A stretch of DNA of 64,000 nt from Giardia intestinalis. Its lineage: Eukaryota. Shown here in pieces: positions 1 to 52,481 of the stretch. A program made the translations under genes and the position numbers. Where the stretch lies: assembly GCA_000002435.2 (NCBI GenBank), contig CM018790.1, one strand, 5' to 3'. The stretch's first letter is position 1; the number at the start of each line of letters is the position of its first letter. Under the pieces are notes generated by a model. The model was not told where the DNA came from. It worked only from the letters and a program-made list of their open reading frames with translations, and did not search any database.

Positions 1-3000
1 GCAATAGCAATAGCATACGCACAATTATAGTGTTTCAGCTCCAAGGCGCGCTGATAGGCCGTCTTACCCTCGTTAGTCTTCAGGTCCTGTTCCTTGATAA
101 GCAGACGGACACAATGGACATGATTCTTTTCAACCGCTAAATACAGCGCAAATGTGCCGTCGGTGTTTTGAAGTCTTCGTTGTGACCGCAAGCATCTAAC
201 CGCTCCGATATCATCATTCTCTGCTGCAACCATGAGCTCTGTCTTTCTGTTGCCTAAGCTGGAATACTGAGATTGATCAATGGATTCCCACTTGAGTAGA
301 AGTCTAACAGCCTCCTCGTTTTCGCAGATGCATGCATAAGACAAGGCAGTGTAGTTTCTATTGCAGCGCATATTCGCCTCCAGTTCTGCTAGAAACTCTA
401 TGCATCTACACTTGTTGAGAATAGCTGCATGCATGAGGGCTGTGCGGCCTTTAGAGTCGGTGATTCGTGCTTGAGTTTGCAACAGACAGTAAACCTTGAA
501 CAGATTGTCCTCGTGAACCGCCTTAATAAGAGGTGGAAAGTCCTCGTCCTCTGCCACTTCATACTCACGAATGAAGCTAATGCTCTTACTCAATGATCTG
601 CTAAGGTCGCTGTCGAGACTACGTGTCGGGGTATCCCTAAGAGATTTTGCCATGCTCCGACTGTAAGACAGTGGGTCTGATATGCGCTGAGACTCCGTGG
701 AGGTGAGGCCTATCGTCCTAGCCCCGTACATGCTGGCGCATGCAGTTTCTCCCAGTGTCGTATTGTGCGGGTGCGCTGGATATATACGCAAAGAATTGTA
801 ACCGTCGTTGACACTGCTTGCCATGCTGTTGCCACCTAGATGTCTTCCAGCTTCTTCGCTAATGTTAACGCCTTCGTAAGGCATAAGCACGTTGACAATT
901 TCCAGGTGGAGCATTTCAAAGGCGATCTCAATGGCCAGTTTCGAGTCATTGGAAAGGATGCCTGTCTCCTTTCCCAGGAAAAAGGGAACCAGATCAGCGT
1001 AGTCGTGAAGACATGCGTATTGCAGGGCCGTTATTCCGTCGCCATTCTTGAAGCCCGCCTCATAGTTAACAAGGAGCTTGACAAGCTTAGGTAGGTGTAA
1101 CCGCGTGGCAATATGGAGTGCTGTTTCTCCACGGATATTGCGCATGGTCTTCTCCCTATCTAGCAAGAGCTCCACCATTGCTAAGTCACCCTTTTCAACG
1201 CTGATGTGTAAGGCTGTGGCCCGCATGCTGTCAATCATGCCGGCCTCCTGCGTCACGAGCAGCTGAGCGACATTGTAGTTGCCATGCTCAATAGCGCGCA
1301 TCAGTGCTGTTTTCCCTACCTTGTCCTGCAGCCCTGCTTCTTGCTCAATTAACAGAAGAGCTGTCTCTGGGAAGTTGCGATCGATGGCCATCATCAGGGC
1401 TGAGGTCTGATGCACATCCACAAACCCAACTTCGTGGGCGACGAGCATGCGGGCAATACTATCATGCTTGTTCATAATAGCTAGCATGAGGGCTGTCTGA
1501 CCATAAAGATCCTGGGCGCCAGCCTCTAGACCCATAAGAGCTTGAACCATGTGTGAGTCCCCTGCTATTGCGGCACGCATGAGAACGGTCTTCCCATATT
1601 CTGTGGTGAGATAGCGTTCTGCAGCAGCAATGGCTGCAGCAGTATCGATCTTGCCCTCGTTAAATGCAACGCCGAGCGCTGTCTCTCCGTAACGAGTGCA
1701 GCGTCCATACTCCGTGGCAGCTATTTTATCAAGAAGAGTACTATCTGTGCGTAGGGTAGCAAAGTCTGCGGTAGCACCCTTAACCCCACCGGTCAGTTCA
1801 AGGATATGCGCGTTAAGAAGCGTATTGTACTCAGTGATACCTGCAGCAGAAATAGCTCCGGAAGGACACGCCTCTGATTGAAGCACCATTCGAAGACCAG
1901 CCTCGCGAGGAAGAAGGGCCTCGGCAATATCTGTCAGCCCTGTTTGCGCACAGTACATGAGAGCAGACATGCCTGTAGAGGTAACAACACCGACATCAGC
2001 AGAAGATAACAGCTTCTTAGCTGTATTCCGGTCTCCCTTAATGCAAGCCTTCATTAATCCCGTAGGACTGGAGACGATCTTGGCTGGTATGTTAGGTGGT
2101 AGCACGGGCGGGAGAGCCATCACCCGTGCAACTGCCGCAGGCCGTGGCTCTACGGCATCAACAGTGCTTGGGCGTTGGCAGTGACTGCATCGGCATTTCA
2201 TGGGTCCAGGTGAGCCTGGAGTCCCTGGGGCTGATCCATGGTGTCCGCTGCCTGTGAATGTGCGCGTTGGACTTGCACCGAACTGCAATCCAAGACGAGA
2301 ACTACACCGCGAGCAGTAGTAGGACTCAGCGTGAAGTCCACCCAGACGCTCAGCAGCTTCCCGGGGGCCATCAAGCTCCAAGAGCAACGAAGGAGACTTG
2401 CGCGTGGCGGGGTTCCAGCGCAGTGTCTTGGACAAGAACGTGATAACATCGTTTGTGTATCCTTTACAGAGCTTTATCCCAACATTCTTCCGGAAAAACT
2501 CCTTCATATCTCTGTTCTCTGTTACAAACTTTGGCTTGCACAAGTTACAGAGCTCAAGCAGCAAGCATGCAAGGCTCCACGTGTCTGCAGATGGTCCATC
2601 ATAGCTTACGTCTATGCGAGGGATAAAATCATTGGGCTGAACACTCGTAGTGCTCAGAGCTGGGCTAGTAAACCCAGGGTCACTCTCCACGGGAGTCTCC
2701 CTCCCCTTCGACTGTTGAGCCATGACTTCTTTGTATATGCGAGAAATCTCTAGCAGTTCGGGAGGATGGTGGGCCATTTGATAAAGGCAATATGAAAGAT
2801 CATGAGAATACACGTCTGCTGGGAAGCGCAAAAAGCCGTAGTCCGAGAGTTTGATGCAACGAATCACGTGGTCGGCTGGGCGCTCGTCTTGGCCTGCATC
2901 AACCCTACTCATCAAGAGGATATTGCTCGACTTTATATTCTGGAATATAGCTCCCACGTTCATCGCGCGTCTGTTCTGCCTGCTGGTCATGTTTTGAAGA

Positions 3001-3386
3001 TAGATGACGGCGTCGATAACCTGAACCATAACGTCCCAGATGAGAGACTCAGAATAGTGGTCTTTGTAGTCCCGTCGGAAATTGATTTCATCGCGCAAAG
3101 AACCGCCCGTAATGTACTCCATCACAAGGAAGACGCAATTCTGGTCCGCATCGTGAATAACGTCGTAATACTTGATAAGGTTGGGGTGATCATAGTCCGG
3201 CAAGTGAGAGAGATCGTCTAGCAACGTGGCGCGGACTTCGTCGTTGGAAATATGTGTGAGTGGAAATTCTTTCACGGCCACCACTTGCCCGTCAGACTTG
3301 CGAGACGCCAGGTAGACCTCGCCATGGGGCCACTTTGCAATGGACTTAATCCAAGTGTAAGCCTCAGGGAGGCGATAATTGGGCAT
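1..3386 (-). CDS. NEK-family kinase-like protein with C-terminal ankyrin repeats (likely pseudokinase); 3' end runs off window start
   Basis: I translated the minus strand manually from the ATG at 3386 (context aaaaATGccc, TAA two codons upstream) down to position 3 and found no stop in that frame. The N-terminal ~300 aa have a kinase fold (VAVKEF lysine, DYGF in place of DFG, IFQNIKSSNILL replacing the HRD loop, no GxGxxG), so the kinase is probably inactive. From ~2120 downward there are ankyrin repeats (TALMYCAQTG, GETALGVAFNEGK...). The gene is absent from the ORF track because the stop lies outside the window. Confidence 0.75.
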   Translation of the reverse strand, partial: MPNYRLPEAYTWIKSIAKWPHGEVYLASRKSDGQVVAVKEFPLTHISNDEVRATLLDDLSHLPDYDHPNLIKYYDVIHDADQNCVFLVMEYITGGSLRDEINFRRDYKDHYSESLIWDVMVQVIDAVIYLQNMTSRQNRRAMNVGAIFQNIKSSNILLMSRVDAGQDERPADHVIRCIKLSDYGFLRFPADVYSHDLSYCLYQMAHHPPELLEISRIYKEVMAQQSKGRETPVESDPGFTSPALSTTSVQPNDFIPRIDVSYDGPSADTWSLACLLLELCNLCKPKFVTENRDMKEFFRKNVGIKLCKGYTNDVITFLSKTLRWNPATRKSPSLLLELDGPREAAERLGGLHAESYYCSRCSSRLGLQFGASPTRTFTGSGHHGSAPGTPGSPGPMKCRCSHCQRPSTVDAVEPRPAAVARVMALPPVLPPNIPAKIVSSPTGLMKACIKGDRNTAKKLLSSADVGVVTSTGMSALMYCAQTGLTDIAEALLPREAGLRMVLQSEACPSGAISAAGITEYNTLLNAHILELTGGVKGATADFATLRTDSTLLDKIAATEYGRCTRYGETALGVAFNEGKIDTAAAIAAAERYLTTEYGKTVLMRAAIAGDSHMVQALMGLEAGAQDLYGQTALMLAIMNKHDSIARMLVAHEVGFVDVHQTSALMMAIDRNFPETALLLIEQEAGLQDKVGKTALMRAIEHGNYNVAQLLVTQEAGMIDSMRATALHISVEKGDLAMVELLLDREKTMRNIRGETALHIATRLHLPKLVKLLVNYEAGFKNGDGITALQYACLHDYADLVPFFLGKETGILSNDSKLAIEIAFEMLHLEIVNVLMPYEGVNISEEAGRHLGGNSMASSVNDGYNSLRIYPAHPHNTTLGETACASMYGARTIGLTSTESQRISDPLSYSRSMAKSLRDTPTRSLDSDLSRSLSKSISFIREYEVAEDEDFPPLIKAVHEDNLFKVYCLLQTQARITDSKGRTALMHAAILNKCRCIEFLAELEANMRCNRNYTALSYACICENEEAVRLLLKWESIDQSQYSSLGNRKTELMVAAENDDIGAVRCLRSQRRLQNTDGTFALYLAVEKNHVHCVRLLIKEQDLKTNEGKTAYQRALELKHYNCAYAIAI

Positions 3387-32554: not shown

Positions 32555-34978
32555 TTAAACCGCGGCACTACCATCGGATCCTTCCTCTAGCTCTGCCAGT
32601 CCCATGGCCTCGTTTGCGTTACGACCGCGGAAGTTTGCATAAGATATGAGTGCTATGGCAGACCTTTCCCGCCTGCCTCGTCGCTTCGTGGGTATATCGA
32701 GAGGATGCTTGGGCTTCTTGTTCTTACAACAGAACCGCCACGAGAGGAACCCAATGAGACCTGCAAGCACGCTGAGGACAAGAACTCCGACGACAATTGG
32801 AACGTAGGGTTGAATGGCTGTTCTTGCTACGTCGGCCTCGCATGCAAAACTGTCCTTTAGTGTGTAACCTGGATAGCATCTACAGACAGGTACTCTCCCA
32901 TTATCCGAGAGACAACGGCCATGTCCACTGCAGACCAGGTTAACGCCACCCGTAGTGGATATGCAGTCTTTGTGGACGCATATGCTATCAACGGTGCTCT
33001 GATAGTTGTCATTGCATGTACAAACGCCCCCTTTGACCACCGTACATCGGCCGTTACCGTTGCACACCGTCCCAAGAGTAAGGCACCCTAGGGGGTAGCA
33101 TACCGTGCCTGACGGCCCCCAGTAGGAATCGCAGATGCAGTAACCCTTATCTCCTTCCTCTTCAACACACCTGCCAGCCCCGTTGCAAACAACGTCTTCA
33201 AAGCCCGGCTCGGAACTGAAGCAATCTTTGACATAGCAGGTTCTGGAGCTTCTGTCCCTTGTGTACCCACTCGAACAATTCTCACACTTTTCCCCGTAGT
33301 GGCCATTCTTACAGACACACTTCTTCTCTGCAGAACATACCCCTCCGCTGTGACAAACAGTTTCTGCCCCGTCCGATTCTTGCGTAATGCACTCCGTTGC
33401 CACACACGGATACACGACGCCTCGGAAGGTGATTGTCTTATATCCAGACTTGCATGTGCAGAAATAGCTATCGCCAGACCTTGTACAGCTTCCGTTGCCT
33501 CCGCATTCCTCGTACTTATTAAAGTCAATGAGGCCAGCACACTCCTTAGGAATGCATCTTCCGGTAAAGAGCTGGACAGCAACATCTTTATCACAAGAGC
33601 AATAAGACTTATTGCCCACTAGATCCATAACGCATGTACCAAACTCATGTCCTCCGCAAACAGTGTCGACGTCGTGACCATTGGCAGACCTTGGGAAGAC
33701 GCACTCCTGTGGAGCACACTGTCTGCCGATTTGCCTGTACTTATTGTCTGTCGTATTTATACATTTGCATATATATCCATTCAGCGCAGTGTTTGGAAGC
33801 TCAGAAACTACACAGGAGGCAACAGTCGGGCCTCCACACACAGACTGGACTGTATGCAAACCGCTTGCTACAGGGACAATGCAGCGCGGGCTGGCACACG
33901 TTCCATTGACTGCAGAGTAGCCAATATCACAAACACACTTTCCATGCACGCATTCACCGACACCACCACAGATCAGAGGATTCTGATCAACGTAATTGAT
34001 GCAGCCTTCTTGGACGCACGTACTCTTAAGGACCCCTGTGATGTCGCGAAGCGTTACTTCGGTAGTGTTGTCTGTGCAGCTACACCTCTTTTCAGAAAGG
34101 GGGGTTCCAGCCTGGCCAAAGCAAGTGCCGAATCCTCCGCACACCTTTGGCTCAGCGAGAGTCGAGTGCACATAGATGCACTTCCTCGGGACACATTGCT
34201 CTCCTGTGCTCACAGCGAGAAAGCCTTCGGAACAAGCACATCCAAACCTCTGCTGCTCCGGTTTGTACACGCAGCCGGCCAGAGCGTCTCCTCCGCAGTA
34301 CACGTTGTCGCGAAGACAATCTTGGTGGATGCATCTCTTATTGAGCAGCGTGAATGGCCCTGAGCAGGCGCATTCGTGGCCACCACCGGCACTCTTCATG
34401 CGACACTCGACGAACGGCGAAAGAGCCCCGCACTCAGAGTATTGCAATTTGCCTCCAACGTACGTCAGAACAGCGCACCCTGTGTGGGTGCAGTAGCCTC
34501 CGTAGCTTTCGGTTTCGTCGGGACACTTACAGCCATAAGAGTTAGTGGTCTCAGTGTATATGCACGACCCTATTCCAGAACATACGTGGCTCAGTCTGTA
34601 TTCCCCAGGAATATGATTGCTTGGCAGGCAATTCACGCTATAGCAGAAACCGCCTATCTTCACAAAGTTCTTGGAACATATGCACGCGTTTGTTGTAGCA
34701 TCCAAAGCGCCAGCTCCTGGGCCACCACAAAATCCTATTGATCTGTGTGCACTTTCATCGGCATACGCAGTCGATAGGACACATGTAGAGACGTAGGTTG
34801 TGAGCAGGCCGCTGCATTGGCAACTCCAGTCGCCGCTTTCCCTCAACAAGCAGCTTTCGCTTCTATTTGTAGCCACATCGTTTGTGACACAATACGTATT
34901 GGGCACTATGCTAGGGCCAGCTAATAAAAATGACGTTACGCTGCATTTACTTCTCCGACGGCGAAAACCCCATTCCAA
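32555..34978 (-). CDS. high-cysteine membrane protein (HCMP; VSP-like EGF/CXXC-rich ectodomain, single TM, cytoplasmic tail)
   Basis: 807 aa. The N-terminus has a basic n-region plus hydrophobic h-region (RRRRSKCSVTSFLLAGPSIV). Dozens of CXXC/CXC motifs and GxC EGF-like spacing. TM helix IVVGVLVLSVLAGLIGFLSW followed by a ~60 aa tail that is not CRGKA. Confidence 0.8.
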   Translation of the reverse strand: MEWGFRRRRSKCSVTSFLLAGPSIVPNTYCVTNDVATNRSESCLLRESGDWSCQCSGLLTTYVSTCVLSTAYADESAHRSIGFCGGPGAGALDATTNACICSKNFVKIGGFCYSVNCLPSNHIPGEYRLSHVCSGIGSCIYTETTNSYGCKCPDETESYGGYCTHTGCAVLTYVGGKLQYSECGALSPFVECRMKSAGGGHECACSGPFTLLNKRCIHQDCLRDNVYCGGDALAGCVYKPEQQRFGCACSEGFLAVSTGEQCVPRKCIYVHSTLAEPKVCGGFGTCFGQAGTPLSEKRCSCTDNTTEVTLRDITGVLKSTCVQEGCINYVDQNPLICGGVGECVHGKCVCDIGYSAVNGTCASPRCIVPVASGLHTVQSVCGGPTVASCVVSELPNTALNGYICKCINTTDNKYRQIGRQCAPQECVFPRSANGHDVDTVCGGHEFGTCVMDLVGNKSYCSCDKDVAVQLFTGRCIPKECAGLIDFNKYEECGGNGSCTRSGDSYFCTCKSGYKTITFRGVVYPCVATECITQESDGAETVCHSGGVCSAEKKCVCKNGHYGEKCENCSSGYTRDRSSRTCYVKDCFSSEPGFEDVVCNGAGRCVEEEGDKGYCICDSYWGPSGTVCYPLGCLTLGTVCNGNGRCTVVKGGVCTCNDNYQSTVDSICVHKDCISTTGGVNLVCSGHGRCLSDNGRVPVCRCYPGYTLKDSFACEADVARTAIQPYVPIVVGVLVLSVLAGLIGFLSWRFCCKNKKPKHPLDIPTKRRGRRERSAIALISYANFRGRNANEAMGLAELEEGSDGSAAV

Positions 34979-45771: not shown

Positions 45772-46425
45772 ATGCCCAGGATCGTTAGGCGCGACGAGGA
45801 GAACGTCTACTACTCGAAGTATCTCAACGACTGCATCATGGAGGCAGAACTTCACGAGTTCTTTTCGCGTGAGCTGGTCGACGCCGGCTATGCCTCCTGC
45901 TCTCTCTGTCGTACCATCGACTCGATCTGCGTGATAATCCAGTGTGCCGAGCCAGAGGTGGTTATGGGCGACAACCACTACCGTCTTCATAAGATCGAGT
46001 ATCTCCTCGCTGGCAGGTTCATGTGCGATCCCAAGAACTTCAACATTTGGGTCGACAAGATAATTAAGCGCGGGCTTAGCGCCGAGATCATGGTTGATAA
46101 CCTTCGTGCAAAGCTCGAGGAGGCGATGCCGATCCGCAGAGCAGCCTACTCAATCATCAGAACCGCGATGCGTGCCGGGGCTGCAGGCTGCGAGGTCATT
46201 GTTGCCGGTAAGCTCCGCGCTCAGCGTGCCCGTGCAAACAAGTTTAAAGAGGGCTGCTTGATCTCGACGGGCCACCCGAAGCGTATCTTCCTGGCAGAGG
46301 CGACGCGCCACATAAAGATGAGGCAGGGTGTTATTGGCGTCAAGGTCCGCATCTATAACCCGAACATCCGTGGTGCGGTCATGCCGGATAAGATTGAGAT
46401 AGGAGCGTTCTCCCGCCAAAAGTAA
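45772..46425 (+). CDS. RPS3: 40S ribosomal protein S3
   Basis: KH-domain region and the C-terminal block AGCEVIVAGKLRAQRARANKFKEGCLISTGHP...RQGVIGVKVRI match RPS3. It shares a 122-bp AT-rich divergent promoter with eIF6. Confidence 0.85.
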   Translation: MPRIVRRDEENVYYSKYLNDCIMEAELHEFFSRELVDAGYASCSLCRTIDSICVIIQCAEPEVVMGDNHYRLHKIEYLLAGRFMCDPKNFNIWVDKIIKRGLSAEIMVDNLRAKLEEAMPIRRAAYSIIRTAMRAGAAGCEVIVAGKLRAQRARANKFKEGCLISTGHPKRIFLAEATRHIKMRQGVIGVKVRIYNPNIRGAVMPDKIEIGAFSRQK

Positions 46426-46635
46426 ATACGCTCCCACAACGCTTTCCCTTCTGCGTCAAAGTGTGGTTGCGGCCTCGTCTCTCCCATAGTATCACGGTTC
46501 GTGATGCGTGGCCATACAATCGTACACAGATCCAGTATCTTCTCGCCTAGCAGCTTGTTTGTAGGATGATACCGGAGAACCGCCCGGCGGGTCTCTTCCT
46601 CAATACTCTCGTCAGGATACCTCTGGGCCAGCACT

Positions 46636-48291
46636 AGGCGCGGGCCACGCGGAGAGACTCGGGGAACCGGACGAGAGGCGCCCTGCGTCGGACTGGGGCA
46701 GCGGGTGAGCGGGGGCCAGGGCCGCGAGGGATTGCTTCCGGGCCTCTGCCTCACGCCGACCCTCGCCGCCTGCTCAGATATCTGCACGGAGCCGCGTGGA
46801 GCAGCTGGAAACGCATTTACTACCTAAGTCACATCTAAGTCTACGCTTTGCCTCTACAGAGGAACCACCAGCAGAGGAAGCCGACGAGGCCCCCGACGAC
46901 GATGACAGCGGCCACAGCGATGCCAGCGATGGCGCCAGTGGAGAGGCCGCTCTTGTTGGCGCTAGAAGGCACGCACTTTTTATCATCACCTAGAACAAAT
47001 CCATCGTTACACTCTGTGCACGTGCCGTCGGGACATGATTTGCAGTTAGGAAGATCGCAGCCAGCAGGCGCGTCCGCGCAGGTGTTCGGAGCCGATCCGT
47101 CGCCGTACGGGCAGTTATCGTAGCACCCGCCCTTGTAGAGCTTCTGCGTCTGGGTACACGCCGTGCAGGTTCCATCTGTGCTTCCCGACCCAGGCGTGCA
47201 CATGTTTGCCTGGGCCTGCTGCGTGCAGGCGCCGTTGACCGGGACATACCCGCTCTTGCATTTGGAGCAGTACGTTTTGCCATTGATCGTCACGTCGCAC
47301 TTGCCGGCGGCGCAGTTTGTCGCGCCGGGGTCTGCGGCGTCGCACGGCGTTGGGGCAGAGACCGCTGCTTTTGCTTCTTCTACTACTTGGACCGCCTGGG
47401 CTAATTGCAGAATAAAGCTCACAAAAAGAAGCTTACTCAACATTGATTCTGTGGCTATGTATTGGTATTTGTAAAAAGACTTGCTGTGTGAACTATCAAC
47501 TAGATTGTCAGTTGATAAAGCTGATGCAAACGCGGACTCATAGGAGAAAGAATCCTCCTAGCTTACAAAGTGCTAAGCAATGCGTACTAGATAATAACAG
47601 CTGAATAAGAATAGAACATTCAAGTGCCTCGGTATGAAAACTGAAAGTGAACTGAACTTTGATTACACGGAGAGCCACTTGCTGTTATGCTGGAGCTTTA
47701 CCAGTGCAGAATCATGTAATCGAACGCACATTTAGGTAGTAGACGCATCCACATGCTGCGTCGCACAAAAAGGCCTTATAGGCTGCCCAGTGGACCCACG
47801 CTCGTTGTCTTAGTGGTCGGAACAAAGTTTGGGGATGTTACGGCTGGGTTATCGCTTGCGGGCATGGTTTAGTAATCCCACGAGTAAATTTTCGCTTAAT
47901 TCCTAGCCAGACCGGACGAGAGTTGGTCATGGATAGCATAACGAGAGAGTCCTCTCCAGTGATATATTCAAAGTCTGGGCATTCCTCGGCCGCTCCATGA
48001 GGATATGCTCTGTCTGGATATCCATGCCGATCTGCCTTGAATTCAAGCCTTCTCGCAGGCTCTCTGCTCTACCCGTGGCGCCTCTCCTTGGTCTTCCTTC
48101 GTGGCTGGTGAGGCTCCGGTCGCTGTCCTTTTTTAGATGCCCCGTCTGTCAGGAGCTGCCATCGGGCTCTCCACTGGCTGGGCCCTCGGTGTCCGGTCAG
48201 CTGTGGCTCGGGCAGTGCTCCTACAGTCGTAGTCACCTGGGTCCCGGTGGGTCCGGCTGGTGGGGAGGCAGGGGTATGGGGCGGTGGGGGC
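46636..48291. repeat. IR1 left arm (~1.65 kb) carrying VSP copy 1 plus ~850 bp non-coding DNA
   Basis: The reverse complement matches 49697..51352 wherever I compared (VSP ORF, 5' flank, GC-rich inner end). Mirror relation: left = 97988 - right. Boundaries set by loss of identity (cgcgggccac / caccgcccc). Confidence 0.85.
46841..47443 (-). CDS. variant-specific surface protein (VSP), 200 aa, copy 1
   Basis: Signal peptide MLSKLLFVSFILQLAQA, CXXC motifs (CAAGKC, CSKCKS, CTACTQ, CKSCPDGTCTEC), a GGCY motif, a TM helix, and the invariant C-terminal CRGKA. AGTAAAT polyA signal ~20 nt after the stop. Confidence 0.85.
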   Translation of the reverse strand: MLSKLLFVSFILQLAQAVQVVEEAKAAVSAPTPCDAADPGATNCAAGKCDVTINGKTYCSKCKSGYVPVNGACTQQAQANMCTPGSGSTDGTCTACTQTQKLYKGGCYDNCPYGDGSAPNTCADAPAGCDLPNCKSCPDGTCTECNDGFVLGDDKKCVPSSANKSGLSTGAIAGIAVAAVIVVGGLVGFLCWWFLCRGKA

Positions 48292-48492
48292 CGGTCAGCA
48301 GGCATCGGCGAGAGGCGGCCTGACTGCGCATGCAGATGCGAGTGTTGGATGGGACGCCATGGGCTGGATGAAGCAGCCCCGTGCAAGGGCCAAAGCCCTG
48401 CCTGCAGAGTCATGCTCTAAGACAGTCATTTTAAAACAAAAACAATAAGGAGACACACTTAAAACGGCCGTTCCCAAAATAATAAATCCACG

Positions 48493-49350
48493 ATGCGCGC
48501 TGCTCCGCCTGGGGCTGCACCAACAGCTCCTAGGGTGTCTGAGTTTACCTTCGAGCAGCTTCGTGGACTACTGGGTAACGTGCTGGGCAGAGGTGCCATG
48601 GGTACAGTCTACGCTCTCAGGGGCTATCAGGGCCTCGCCGTGAAGGAGATCCGGCTCGACAGCCTGAACGAGAAGGCTATCGACGCCCTCATGCTTGAAC
48701 TAGATGTTCTCCCTGGCCTTCACCACCCAGGGGTTCTCAGATACCACCAAGTGATCAAAGGCAACGACCTCGTCTACATCGTCATGGATCGCCACAGCAG
48801 GACTCTTAATGACCTCGTTATCGAGTGCAAGCAGGGGGACAGACCTATCTCTGTTACTATGATCCTCTCAAGTGTGAGGCAGCTCGTCGCCGCCCTCGCC
48901 TACCTCCACAGCGTCAGCGGAGTGGGTGCCGACGGCCACCCCTACCAGGGCCTCGTCCACCGCGACCTCAAGCCTGCCAACGTCCTCATCAGTAAAAAGG
49001 GAAAGCGCTTCATCATCGCCGACTTCGGCCTCTGCAAGGACGCCCTGAGATGCGGGAGCACCTATGCAGGGACGCCACTATACATGGCCCCCGAGACCCT
49101 TATCCGCAACAAGACCAGTCCCGCCTCCGACGTGTGGAGCCTCGGGGTCATCCTCTACGAGCTTACTACTCTGAGGAGACCGGACTTCTTGGGGGGCAAG
49201 GAGCCAGCAGAGGTCTTCATCGATGGGTGGAGGCCGGACCTGAGCGGTGTCACTGATGGCTTCATAAAGAGTGTTCTGGAGCGGATATTCGTGCTGGAGC
49301 CAGAGAGGAGGCCGACGGCCAGGGAGCTGTGCGAGATGCTCAGACAGTAA
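48493..49350 (+). CDS. NEK-family serine/threonine kinase, catalytically competent (285 aa), in IR1 spacer
   Basis: GRGAMGTVYA loop, AVKEI lysine, HRDLKPANVL, DFG, PLYMAPE. Start context aaaataataaatccacgATGcgc. AGTAAAC (49346-49352) overlaps the TAA stop. Confidence 0.8.
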   Translation: MRAAPPGAAPTAPRVSEFTFEQLRGLLGNVLGRGAMGTVYALRGYQGLAVKEIRLDSLNEKAIDALMLELDVLPGLHHPGVLRYHQVIKGNDLVYIVMDRHSRTLNDLVIECKQGDRPISVTMILSSVRQLVAALAYLHSVSGVGADGHPYQGLVHRDLKPANVLISKKGKRFIIADFGLCKDALRCGSTYAGTPLYMAPETLIRNKTSPASDVWSLGVILYELTTLRRPDFLGGKEPAEVFIDGWRPDLSGVTDGFIKSVLERIFVLEPERRPTARELCEMLRQ

Positions 49351-49371
49351 ACAGCGACCTGTCCTCTCTGC

Positions 49372-49483
49372 CACAGCTTTTATGATAGCGGCCTCCCATG
49401 GCCACGCAGACCGTGTCAAGGTGCTCCTAGAGAAGGAAGGGAGGATGCAGGATAGCTATGGACAGACAGCCCTCATGGTCTGA
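49372..49483 (+). pseudogene. out-of-frame single ankyrin-repeat remnant downstream of the NEK kinase
   Basis: TAFMIAASHGHADRVKVLLEKEGRMQDSYGQTALMV is an ankyrin-repeat-like sequence in a different frame, directly 3' of the kinase stop and ending before the IR1 right arm. Confidence 0.35.
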
Positions 49484-49696
49484 GGGCGAGGATGAATGTA
49501 GGCAGCAGGCAGAGGCTCCCCTCTACTCCTGCAAAGGGACGACCAGGAGCCCAGTGTGATCGTCGGTGCCTGGCTTATATCTCGTGCAGCGCGGGCTGGA
49601 GATCAGACACAATCACCCTAGCAAACAGAGTAGGGATCACTCACCACTCCGCTGGCCCACCGGACCCAGGGGCGCATACAACCATCACCAACCTCA

Positions 49697-51352
49697 GCCC
49701 TCACCGCCCCATACCCCTGCCTCCCCACCAGCCGGACCCACCGGGACCCAGGTGACTACGACTGTAGGAGCACTGCCCGAGCCACAGCTGACCGGACACC
49801 GAGGGCCCAGCCAGTGGAGAGCCCGATGGCAGCTCCTGACAGACGGGGCATCTAAAAAAGGACAGCGACCGGAGCCTCACCAGCCACGAAGGAAGACCAA
49901 GGAGAGGCGCCACGGGTAGAGCAGAGAGCCTGCGAGAAGGCTTGAATTCAAGGCAGATCGGCATGGATATCCAGACAGAGCATATCCTCATGGAGCGGCC
50001 GAGGAATGCCCAGACTTTGAATATATCACTGGAGAGGACTCTCTCGTTATGCTATCCATGACCAACTCTCGTCCGGTCTGGCTAGGAATTAAGCGAAAAT
50101 TTACTCGTGGGATTACTAAACCATGCCCGCAAGCGATAACCCAGCCGTAACATCCCCAAACTTTGTTCCGACCACTAAGACAACGAGCGTGGGTCCACTG
50201 GGCAGCCTATAAGGCCTTTTTGTGCGACGCAGCATGTGGATGCGTCTACTACCTAAATGTGCGTTCGATTACATGATTCTGCACTGGTAAAGCTCCAGCA
50301 TAACAGCAAGTGGCTCTCCGTGTAATCAAAGTTCAGTTCACTTTCAGTTTTCATACCGAGGCACTTGAATGTTCTATTCTTATTCAGCTGTTATTATCTA
50401 GTACGCATTGCTTAGCACTTTGTAAGCTAGGAGGATTCTTTCTCCTATGAGTCCGCGTTTGCATCAGCTTTATCAACTGACAATCTAGTTGATAGTTCAC
50501 ACAGCAAGTCTTTTTACAAATACCAATACATAGCCACAGAATCAATGTTGAGTAAGCTTCTTTTTGTGAGCTTTATTCTGCAATTAGCCCAGGCGGTCCA
50601 AGTAGTAGAAGAAGCAAAAGCAGCGGTCTCTGCCCCAACGCCGTGCGACGCCGCAGACCCCGGCGCGACAAACTGCGCCGCCGGCAAGTGCGACGTGACG
50701 ATCAATGGCAAAACGTACTGCTCCAAATGCAAGAGCGGGTATGTCCCGGTCAACGGCGCCTGCACGCAGCAGGCCCAGGCAAACATGTGCACGCCTGGGT
50801 CGGGAAGCACAGATGGAACCTGCACGGCGTGTACCCAGACGCAGAAGCTCTACAAGGGCGGGTGCTACGATAACTGCCCGTACGGCGACGGATCGGCTCC
50901 GAACACCTGCGCGGACGCGCCTGCTGGCTGCGATCTTCCTAACTGCAAATCATGTCCCGACGGCACGTGCACAGAGTGTAACGATGGATTTGTTCTAGGT
51001 GATGATAAAAAGTGCGTGCCTTCTAGCGCCAACAAGAGCGGCCTCTCCACTGGCGCCATCGCTGGCATCGCTGTGGCCGCTGTCATCGTCGTCGGGGGCC
51101 TCGTCGGCTTCCTCTGCTGGTGGTTCCTCTGTAGAGGCAAAGCGTAGACTTAGATGTGACTTAGGTAGTAAATGCGTTTCCAGCTGCTCCACGCGGCTCC
51201 GTGCAGATATCTGAGCAGGCGGCGAGGGTCGGCGTGAGGCAGAGGCCCGGAAGCAATCCCTCGCGGCCCTGGCCCCCGCTCACCCGCTGCCCCAGTCCGA
51301 CGCAGGGCGCCTCTCGTCCGGTTCCCCGAGTCTCTCCGCGTGGCCCGCGCTG
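49697..51352. repeat. IR1 right arm (~1.65 kb) carrying VSP copy 2
   Basis: Mirror image of 46636..48291. Confidence 0.85.
50545..51147 (+). CDS. variant-specific surface protein (VSP), 200 aa, copy 2 (identical to copy 1)
   Basis: Identical translation to 46841..47443. AGTAAAT at 51167-51173. Confidence 0.85.
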   Translation: MLSKLLFVSFILQLAQAVQVVEEAKAAVSAPTPCDAADPGATNCAAGKCDVTINGKTYCSKCKSGYVPVNGACTQQAQANMCTPGSGSTDGTCTACTQTQKLYKGGCYDNCPYGDGSAPNTCADAPAGCDLPNCKSCPDGTCTECNDGFVLGDDKKCVPSSANKSGLSTGAIAGIAVAAVIVVGGLVGFLCWWFLCRGKA

Positions 51353-51458
51353 CGCCGTGCATCCCGGCGGCGCTGGGCCGTCCAAGAGTCCCCGTGACAC
51401 TTTTGCATCCATCCATCGTAGAATTTTATGCGCGACTGTAGCTGTTTAGTCCCTGCGC

Positions 51459-51531
51459 GGGCGGTTAGCTCAGTTGGTAGAGCGCGTGCTTCGCAAGCAC
51501 GAGGCCGGGGGTTCGACTCCCCCATCGTCCA
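51459..51531 (+). tRNA. tRNA-Ala (anticodon CGC)
   Basis: Cloverleaf folded by hand. Acceptor GGGCGGT/ATCGTCC with a G3:U70 pair (the Ala identity element). D-arm GCTC-AGTTGGTA-GAGC. Anticodon stem CGTGC/GCACG with loop TTCGCAA. T-arm GGGGG-TTCGACT-CCCCC. Discriminator A. CCA is not encoded. Confidence 0.9.
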
Positions 51532-51539
51532 CTTTTCAA

Positions 51540-52481
51540 ATGTCTGCGACGACGACGCTCTTCGAGGGCGATCTCCACTTCGCCCTTGCTCCAGACCTCG
51601 AGGCTCCAGAGTCGTGCGTCTACGCCGTGCAGGTTGGGGACCCCCGCCTTATCTCCATTATTCGGCCTCGGACCACAAATCTTCGCTCCGTCATTGATCC
51701 GCGAAGCATTGAGTTGACTGAGAATCCCATCGTCCTAGAGTTTCTCACAAATAAGGAACGAGAACCCTACACTGTTCGTGGGAAACAAGCTGCGCTAACA
51801 GGCGATATGATACAAGCCCCAGCTTTCGGGCTCGAAACCACAAAGCAACACGTCCTTTCTTTCGTTTTGACAGATTGTACGACAAATATCCGATTCAATG
51901 TCATCTCCAGGCCTGAAAGCACCCTCCGCGGACTGTGCCTCAGTGTACCAAACAACTTCCTTGACAGTCTTCGGGCACAAGAACGACAAGAGTCCGGTTC
52001 ACTCCACATCTTATCGGGCAACGCGGTATGGTTGATGCGCTTACTCAAGGCGAGTTGTGAAAGCGATGGGCGTAGAGATAAACCTGACGAGGATGTTCTC
52101 ACGTCGGATAGAGGTGCACTCTCTCAAATGCTCTTCACAAGTCTCCAGACCACTAGGAATGTAATCTCAACAACTAAGAGTTGGACGCAATCGGACAATG
52201 TTGACAACGAAGAGAGTAAAAGCTCTTCTACGAAAAAGGATGAGGAAAGCGTGCTTAGCATAGACGAATCCAAAGAAGCTAGCGATGATGATGTTGATGA
52301 CACAGAGAACAGAAAGGAGCAGAGGCAGCAACGTCAACGCGAAAAAAAGCGCGGGGCCCTTCAGGGAAATGACGAAGAAAGCGACAACAGCGACCCTCTA
52401 GATGGTGATGGCGTCTCGGCATCCTCCAGGCAGACCACGCGGCCAACTTATGAGGGGTATCCCAGTCGACAGCGGTTATAA
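51540..52481 (+). CDS. hypothetical protein (313 aa) with highly acidic/basic C-terminal tail
   Basis: The first ATG is at 51540, 9 nt after the tRNA 3' end. The track ORF began inside the tRNA via an alternative start. The C-terminus reads DDDVDDTENRKEQRQQRQREKKR. Confidence 0.55.
   Translation: MSATTTLFEGDLHFALAPDLEAPESCVYAVQVGDPRLISIIRPRTTNLRSVIDPRSIELTENPIVLEFLTNKEREPYTVRGKQAALTGDMIQAPAFGLETTKQHVLSFVLTDCTTNIRFNVISRPESTLRGLCLSVPNNFLDSLRAQERQESGSLHILSGNAVWLMRLLKASCESDGRRDKPDEDVLTSDRGALSQMLFTSLQTTRNVISTTKSWTQSDNVDNEESKSSSTKKDEESVLSIDESKEASDDDVDDTENRKEQRQQRQREKKRGALQGNDEESDNSDPLDGDGVSASSRQTTRPTYEGYPSRQRL

Follow-up and report, generated by a model that had tools for sequence, protein, structure and literature searches.

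A lone ankyrin repeat behind a Giardia NEK kinase as the probable relic of a VSP-NEK-ankyrin unit

How a single ankyrin repeat came to lie directly behind a complete NEK kinase gene, in another reading frame and within the spacer of an inverted VSP gene pair, is the question raised by a locus of Giardia intestinalis (GenBank assembly GCA_000002435.2, contig CM018790.1). The stretch of DNA analysed here, referred to as the window, is 64,000 nt long, and its relevant features are collected in Table 1. The repeat is most likely an ordinary relic of gene decay in a known, fast-evolving VSP/NEK/ankyrin locus, and what is added to the published picture is modest: breakpoints at the level of single bases, a stop codon and poly(A) signal that would derive from a deletion junction, and a connection of an interstitial VSP pair with the telomere gene unit.

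Table 1 Features of the inverted VSP pair and its spacer in window coordinates
Feature	Position	Strand	Description
Left inverted-repeat arm	46638-48291	.	1654 nt; bears the minus-strand VSP
Left VSP	46841-47443	-	200 aa, C-terminus CRGKA; Pfam VSP E 1e-28
NEK kinase GL50803_101534	48493-49350	+	285 aa; Pkinase E 2e-40
Left breakpoint	49342/49343	+	GL4-paralogue DNA homology stops after ...GAGATGCTCA
Junction/filler	49343-49372	+	30 nt; last two codons, TAA 49348-49350, AGTAAAC 49346-49352
Ankyrin relic	49373-49479	+	full TALM-ankyrin repeat and TALMV of the next; Pfam Ank_2
33-codon ATG ORF	49382-49483	+	within relic region; formerly GL50803_23183
Unique non-coding tail	49480-49696	.	no ankyrin, kinase, rRNA or Pfam signal
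Right inverted-repeat arm	49697-51350	.	1654 nt; bears the plus-strand VSP
Right VSP	50545-51147	+	200 aa, identical to left VSP

The locus and its published context

The arms of the inverted repeat enclose a spacer of 1405 nt, toward which the 5′ ends of both VSPs point, and the two VSP ORFs are 3101 bp apart in window coordinates. A VSP pair of chromosome 2, 117472/117473, is given in Table 2 of Xu 2020 (PMC7000408) as '<- ->', 200 aa, 3101 bp apart and with 'NEK' between, and since both the 200-aa size and the 3101-bp spacing match, the pair in the window is this divergent pair of Giardia WB and the locus is already published. It also fits the head-to-head pair 36 of Adam 2010 (PMC2996952), for which a 3′ divergence of 203 and an ORF distance of 3102 are given, although the 5′ divergence of pair 36 in Table 5 of that paper is 729 nt as against the 848 nt of arm that lie upstream of the VSP start here. 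The DNA between such pairs was called non-coding in the same work, whereas the spacer in the window bears an active NEK, and the label is thereby corrected. Among the identical inverted pairs of Xu 2020, four of the six other divergent ones hold a reverse-transcriptase remnant where a kinase is found here. When the inner ends of the spacer were compared with each other, no residual similarity that would extend the arms was found, and the divergence is abrupt. The single mismatch between the arms, otherwise reported as 100% complementary, is a G/A pair at 48287 versus 49701, 5 nt from the inner ends.

The kinase in the spacer consists of the kinase domain only and has the catalytic K, D and D residues all present. 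Its product is identical to KAE8302367.1 of the 2019 assembly and to XP_001708720.1 of the 2007 assembly. In the supplement of Manning 2011 (PMC3218828) it is classified as a Nek-GL4, 'Active (K,D,D present)', in orthology class C (strain-cluster). The epitope-tagged protein was localised there to the posterior-lateral paraflagellar rods, the perinuclear regions and the cytoplasm, and ankyrin repeats are absent from the four active Neks that were studied. The same paper describes a fast turnover in GL4 with rampant duplication and pseudogenisation, 29 GL4 pseudogenes in WB, and gains or losses of ankyrin repeats among related Neks. The sequence identities place the kinase domain in GL4 as well, since the nearest Giardia NEKs are mostly 57-68% identical to it in amino acids with most of the length aligned, the domain shares 61% of its residues with that of the WB paralogue P0223, and its DNA is 76-77% identical by blastn to three of the GL4 loci described below (L001, L011 and L013). 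In contrast to the Nek-GL4 pseudogenes, this is an intact, active kinase of which the tail alone has decayed; the relic downstream is not described in the searched text and supplements of that paper.

With the kinase frame as reference, the relic is read in the +1 frame and its protein is TAFMIAASHGHADRVKVLLEKEGRMQDSYGQTALMV*. The frame is open from 49271, the repeat is intact across 35 codons, and an in-frame TGA at 49481-49483 closes it after the TALMV of the following repeat. It exceeds the Pfam cut-offs for Ank_2 (31.7 bits against 27.3, E 2e-7), Ank_4 (27.6 against 22.7) and Ank (22.9 against 21.1). By BLASTP it matches residues 873-908 of the intact P0223 with an E of 3e-13 and 67% identity, and its DNA is 73-75% identical over 80-97 nt to the ankyrin ORFs of the paralogous loci (blastn, E ~5e-9). 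The ankyrin similarity is therefore real. A sequence-only reading of the locus had noticed this out-of-frame repeat and had allowed that it might resemble ankyrin genes by chance; the paralogue alignments show a match beyond chance. Its repeat codons begin at 49373, 22 nt past the kinase stop codon and not 25 nt as that reading had it, and the fragment does not end just before the right arm, from which 213 nt separate the ORF stop at 49483. The stop of the kinase is embedded in AGTAAAC, as had been observed.

The repeat is of the TALM-ankyrin type, which is characterised by the four residues TALM at the start of the repeat and a conserved E near its end (Manning 2011, PMC3218828). It begins with TAFM, one substitution away, the next repeat begins with an exact TALM, and the conserved E is found in LLEKEG. 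What does not correspond to the type is the setting: instead of an array in an expressed protein there is a single repeat, out of frame and past a stop codon and a poly(A) signal. The 33-aa ORF within it is an exact match to XP_001708719.1, 'hypothetical protein GL50803_23183' of the 2007 annotation; in the current NCBI annotation the kinase is retained and the 33-aa ORF has been dropped.

Paralogue architecture and the breakpoints of homology

In the closest paralogues the kinase is followed by a coiled coil of ~100 aa and then by a long ankyrin array of ~600-670 aa, which is either fused to the kinase in a single ORF, as in the WB proteins P0223 and P0041, or forms an abutting ORF, as in the loci L011, L012 and L013. 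The sequence order is '…ERRPTARELxxML', a conserved linker '…DIPVSELG…', the coiled coil '…ALNGANARIALLEEDVK…' and the ankyrin repeats. P0223 (XP_001708993.1, 1114 aa) is an intact single ORF with kinase, coiled coil and ~18 repeats. At L011, in the last 6.9 kb of the P15 contig ACVC01000194 (977-6618), a VSP, a 422-aa NEK, a 610-aa ankyrin ORF and a truncated LSU rRNA are found together, the rRNA (Rfam model positions 1891-2388) lying ~160 nt past the ankyrin ORF at the contig end. The NEK and ankyrin ORFs of this locus overlap by 4 nt, and they suggest one gene split by a frameshift. L012 (GCA_000498735.1) has a VSP, a 435-aa NEK and a 674-aa ankyrin ORF, and from GCA_000498715.1 come both L013, with the order VSP(-), NEK(+), Ank(+), and L001, a NEK with a frameshifted ankyrin tail. 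The gene at 1..3386 of the window, which the sequence-only reading had cited as an example of the same architecture, is a NEK-ankyrin gene as stated, but it lies on the minus strand; it is cut off by the window's left edge, with a kinase-like N-terminus at 3386 followed by ankyrin repeats.

Aligned to these paralogues, the kinase loses DNA homology 6 nt before its stop codon, as the blastn alignments end at 49342 with L001 and L011 and at 49336 with L013. Past GAGATGCTCA the paralogues run into the linker and coiled coil (CCGTACCCGACATCCCAGTTAGTGAGCT...), and this coiled-coil linker (…DIPVSELG…ALNSANARIA…) is missing from every frame downstream of 49342, where the contiguous or abutting array of a Nek-GL4 is represented solely by the one out-of-frame repeat. 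Searched against the paralogous loci and the rest of the window, the 30 nt at the junction gave no significant hit. Ankyrin homology is found from 49373 onward, with local DNA alignments that extend to 49477, 49479 or 49494 across L011, L012 and the P15 locus L002; the continuation to ~49494 is a weak and doubtful 15 nt that needs a 1-nt indel. In P0223 ~520 codons separate the equivalent positions, which are ELCKML at residue 353 and, for the best-matching repeat, residues 873-908. Compared with the family architecture, some 1.5-2 kb is therefore missing inside the gene, as is the remainder of the array after the repeat.

Beyond the relic, homology does not resume before the right arm. Alignment scores of 49484-49696 against the ankyrin regions of the paralogues equal those of shuffled sequence, a blastn-short search with 49480-49696 returned nothing significant from the fetched loci or from elsewhere in the window, and the ORFs of the same segment have no Pfam match and the segment no Rfam match. 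Truncation by the VSP arm, as proposed in the sequence-only reading, is not supported: more than 200 nt separate the end of the ankyrin homology from 49697, and most of what was lost lay inside the gene, between 49342/49343 and 49373.

Origin of the repeat

The spacer is most likely a decayed VSP-NEK-ANK unit that has lost ~1.5-2 kb from its interior, and the relic would be the stump of its ankyrin tail. The paralogue architecture, the strand and order, and the matches to terminal repeats support the earlier proposal that this stump was left by a longer NEK-ankyrin gene. The ancestor would have encoded a kinase followed by a coiled coil and ~18 TALM-ankyrin repeats. Loss of ~1.5-2 kb by deletion or rearrangement would then have taken out the stretch from the last helix of the kinase domain (49342/49343) up to a terminal repeat (49373), and 30 unrelated bases would have stayed at the junction and by chance provided a TAA inside AGTAAAC. 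The kinase would have survived as the compact, active, expressed, kinase-only NEK GL50803_101534, with a single repeat left out of frame past the poly(A) signal, and a further event would have taken away the rest of the array. The events may well have followed one another in this order. One simple deletion does not explain all of it, as neither the 30-nt filler nor the 200-217-nt tail has an identifiable source.

The affinities of the repeat itself point in the same direction. Its 13 best tblastn matches all fall in ankyrin ORFs of GL4 units or in the P15 NEK-ankyrin gene (49-66% identity), and they cluster near the 3′ ends of these ORFs, while among the other ankyrin genes of the window the best of 45 repeat matches reaches 54% and most lie at 35-48% (tblastn). 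The identity to the terminal repeat of P0223 (67%) is near that of the kinase domains (61%), as shared ancestry would predict.

Against the repeat having been part of this gene stands the possibility that an unrelated ankyrin gene (Protein 21.1/ARP-1) supplied it as a captured or filler fragment, pasted in during the rearrangements from which the inverted VSP pair arose, which we consider unlikely though worth weighing. Unrelated ankyrin proteins among the representatives of a large protein library match the repeat about equally (60-69% identity, up to 68.6% for a single repeat), both flanks of the repeat are without a homologue, and the proximal tail repeats of GL4 fit it poorly, with 43% identity to residues 330-371 of P0041. 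The representative search ranks long arrays by their summed score and singles out no parent gene, and a word-index protein search with a 45-aa fragment has the old annotation entry (XP_001708719.1) as its sole match. However, in its strand and in its position after a GL4 kinase the repeat agrees exactly with the VSP-NEK-ANK unit, it is most similar to the terminal repeats of these units, and at the DNA level it is closer to the unit ankyrin ORFs from other assemblages than to the remaining ankyrin genes of the window, where only 30 nt match. Origin from the tail of this very gene is therefore favoured, because strand, order and terminal-repeat affinity fit the GL4 unit; this falls short of proof, because the repeat is near the general TALM consensus and unrelated proteins reach the same identity.

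That the 33-codon ORF, or an RNA across it, is a functional micro-gene or a regulatory element of the VSP pair appears very improbable. The ORF does have an ATG and a former annotation, and the repeat in it is undamaged. However, the 60 nt upstream of its ATG are 45% A+T, compared with 65% for the kinase, so that an AT-rich initiator is lacking, and no AGTRAAY follows the relic ORF within 60 nt downstream. The AGTAAAC of the kinase overlaps its stop codon at offset -2, a geometry identical to that of the neighbouring RPS3 gene. A lone ankyrin repeat is neither known nor expected to fold by itself. The Rfam search of the spacer matched no family, the ORF is absent from the current annotation, and the protein search found no homologous small ORF apart from the old annotation entry. 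Because the relic has neither an AT-rich initiator nor a poly(A) signal and lies beyond the poly(A) signal of the kinase, we conclude that it is, as judged by these signals, a non-functional pseudogene scrap past the kinase 3′ end, and it is presumably untranscribed. The dropped 'hypothetical protein' GL50803_23183 would be explained in this way.

An assembly or sequencing frameshift that separated a small NEK from its one ankyrin repeat is effectively refuted, a frameshift error having been the alternative offered by the sequence-only reading. While the ankyrin frame is open from 49271 and one indel in 49271-49347 would fuse both ORFs, the 285-aa product with the identical stop is found in the 2007 and the 2019 assemblies, the newer of which was Illumina-corrected (Xu 2020, PMC7000408), and the window agrees exactly with the 33-aa ORF annotated in 2007. 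The kinase stop lies within a canonical AGTAAAC, a specific localisation was obtained with the tagged 285-aa ORF (PMC3218828), the paralogue homology breaks ahead of the stop codon, and with ~1.5 kb missing no single indel restores the paralogue architecture.

If the decayed VSP-NEK-ANK unit is the right reading, the locus would provide a base-resolved case of a kinase-only, active Nek-GL4 protein derived from a kinase-coiled coil-ankyrin ancestor, in which a deletion junction gave the gene its new stop codon together with a poly(A) signal. The locus would also tie a published inverted VSP pair to the VSP-kinase-ankyrin unit of chromosome ends. These are details at the level of annotation, and the current view of Giardia biology is unchanged.

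The telomere gene unit and other isolates

The telomere gene unit of Giardia has been described as VSP or CRP (cysteine-rich protein), gPK, ANK, rDNA and telomere (PMC10999387, citing Upcroft 1997 and 2010), and the P15 locus L011 is a textbook example of it. The window shares with this unit the order and strand of three families, the VSP, the GL4-type kinase and the ankyrin, with the left VSP on the minus strand and the NEK and the relic on the plus strand in the same orientation as in L013. In addition, the nearest kinase relatives of the window NEK, P0002 and P0003, are the old 1997 GenBank entries AAB51602.1 and AAB51601.1, named 'protein kinase'. In contrast to the telomeric arrangement, the copy in the window is interstitial: the inverted repeat is flanked by housekeeping genes and a tRNA, with RPS3, eIF6 and tRNA-Ala as neighbours, and no rRNA match is present in 46000-52000, so that the rDNA, telomere and chromosome end of the unit have no counterpart here. 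The ANK is moreover cut down to one repeat, the coiled coil is gone, and the unit is bracketed by two identical divergent VSPs instead of being accompanied by one.

A further step would be to regard the pair and its NEK spacer as an internalised telomere gene unit that underwent inverted duplication, related to the '<- ->' pairs with reverse-transcriptase remnants; this we hold to be a rather improbable extension. If it were true, the reverse-transcriptase remnants might come from the telomere-associated retrotransposons of Giardia, interstitial VSP pairs would mark former chromosome ends or captured subtelomeric units, and the stump with its junction-born stop and poly(A) signal would record the birth of a kinase-only NEK from a NEK-ankyrin gene.

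The syntenic locus in P15 (assemblage E), L002 (ACVC01000363, 10001-20654), was inspected as an orthologous locus. There RPS3 is followed by one orthologous VSP of 198 aa, without an inverted pair and in the orientation opposite to the left copy of WB. Past this VSP lie ~4.5 kb of DNA that is rich in GC and matches RVT_1 weakly (E 3.7e-4, below cut-off; YADD motif), and then a 409-aa ORF without a Pfam match and a minus-strand NEK-ankyrin gene. The latter was considered as an orthologue and rejected, as its DNA aligns at the C-lobe only and its orientation and neighbours differ. The comparison of orthologous loci that the sequence-only reading had proposed could thus be made for the syntenic region, but the P15 locus is arranged differently and provides neither an orthologue of GL50803_101534 nor an orthologous spacer. 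The spacer was likewise not recovered from other isolates by product look-ups or metagenome scans: exact-product look-ups of the kinase, the WB paralogues P0041 and P0014 and a 117-aa spacer ORF gave no record, and of two metagenome scans with junction and repeat strings one gave none and the other a 23-nt chance match in an unrelated contig of 45% GC.

Other assemblage A isolates, represented by short-read assemblies, are 99.2-99.5% identical across RPS3. Most of their contigs stop 30-56 nt into the left arm, and the bases at these ends are likewise found, in reverse, at the right arm's outer edge; since assemblers stop at repeat edges, the inverted repeat is probably common to assemblage A.

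Three minor observations concern the surroundings of the pair. Both arms contain an element of ~235 nt upstream of the VSPs (47900-48133 and 49855-50088), which is 81% identical to positions 934-1170 of L013, beside the VSP on AHGT01000023 (GCA_000498715.1), and may be a VSP-associated intergenic repeat. Outside the right arm, 109 nt from its outer edge, a tRNA-Ala(CGC) is located at 51459-51532 (+) (Rfam 69 bits; ARAGORN), and the ORF-list translation across it is spurious. Finally, Logan/ENA contigs from several isolates (L003-L010) are ~11.8 kb long and have both ends in common, and their left ends near window position 34890 hint at another repeat boundary there.
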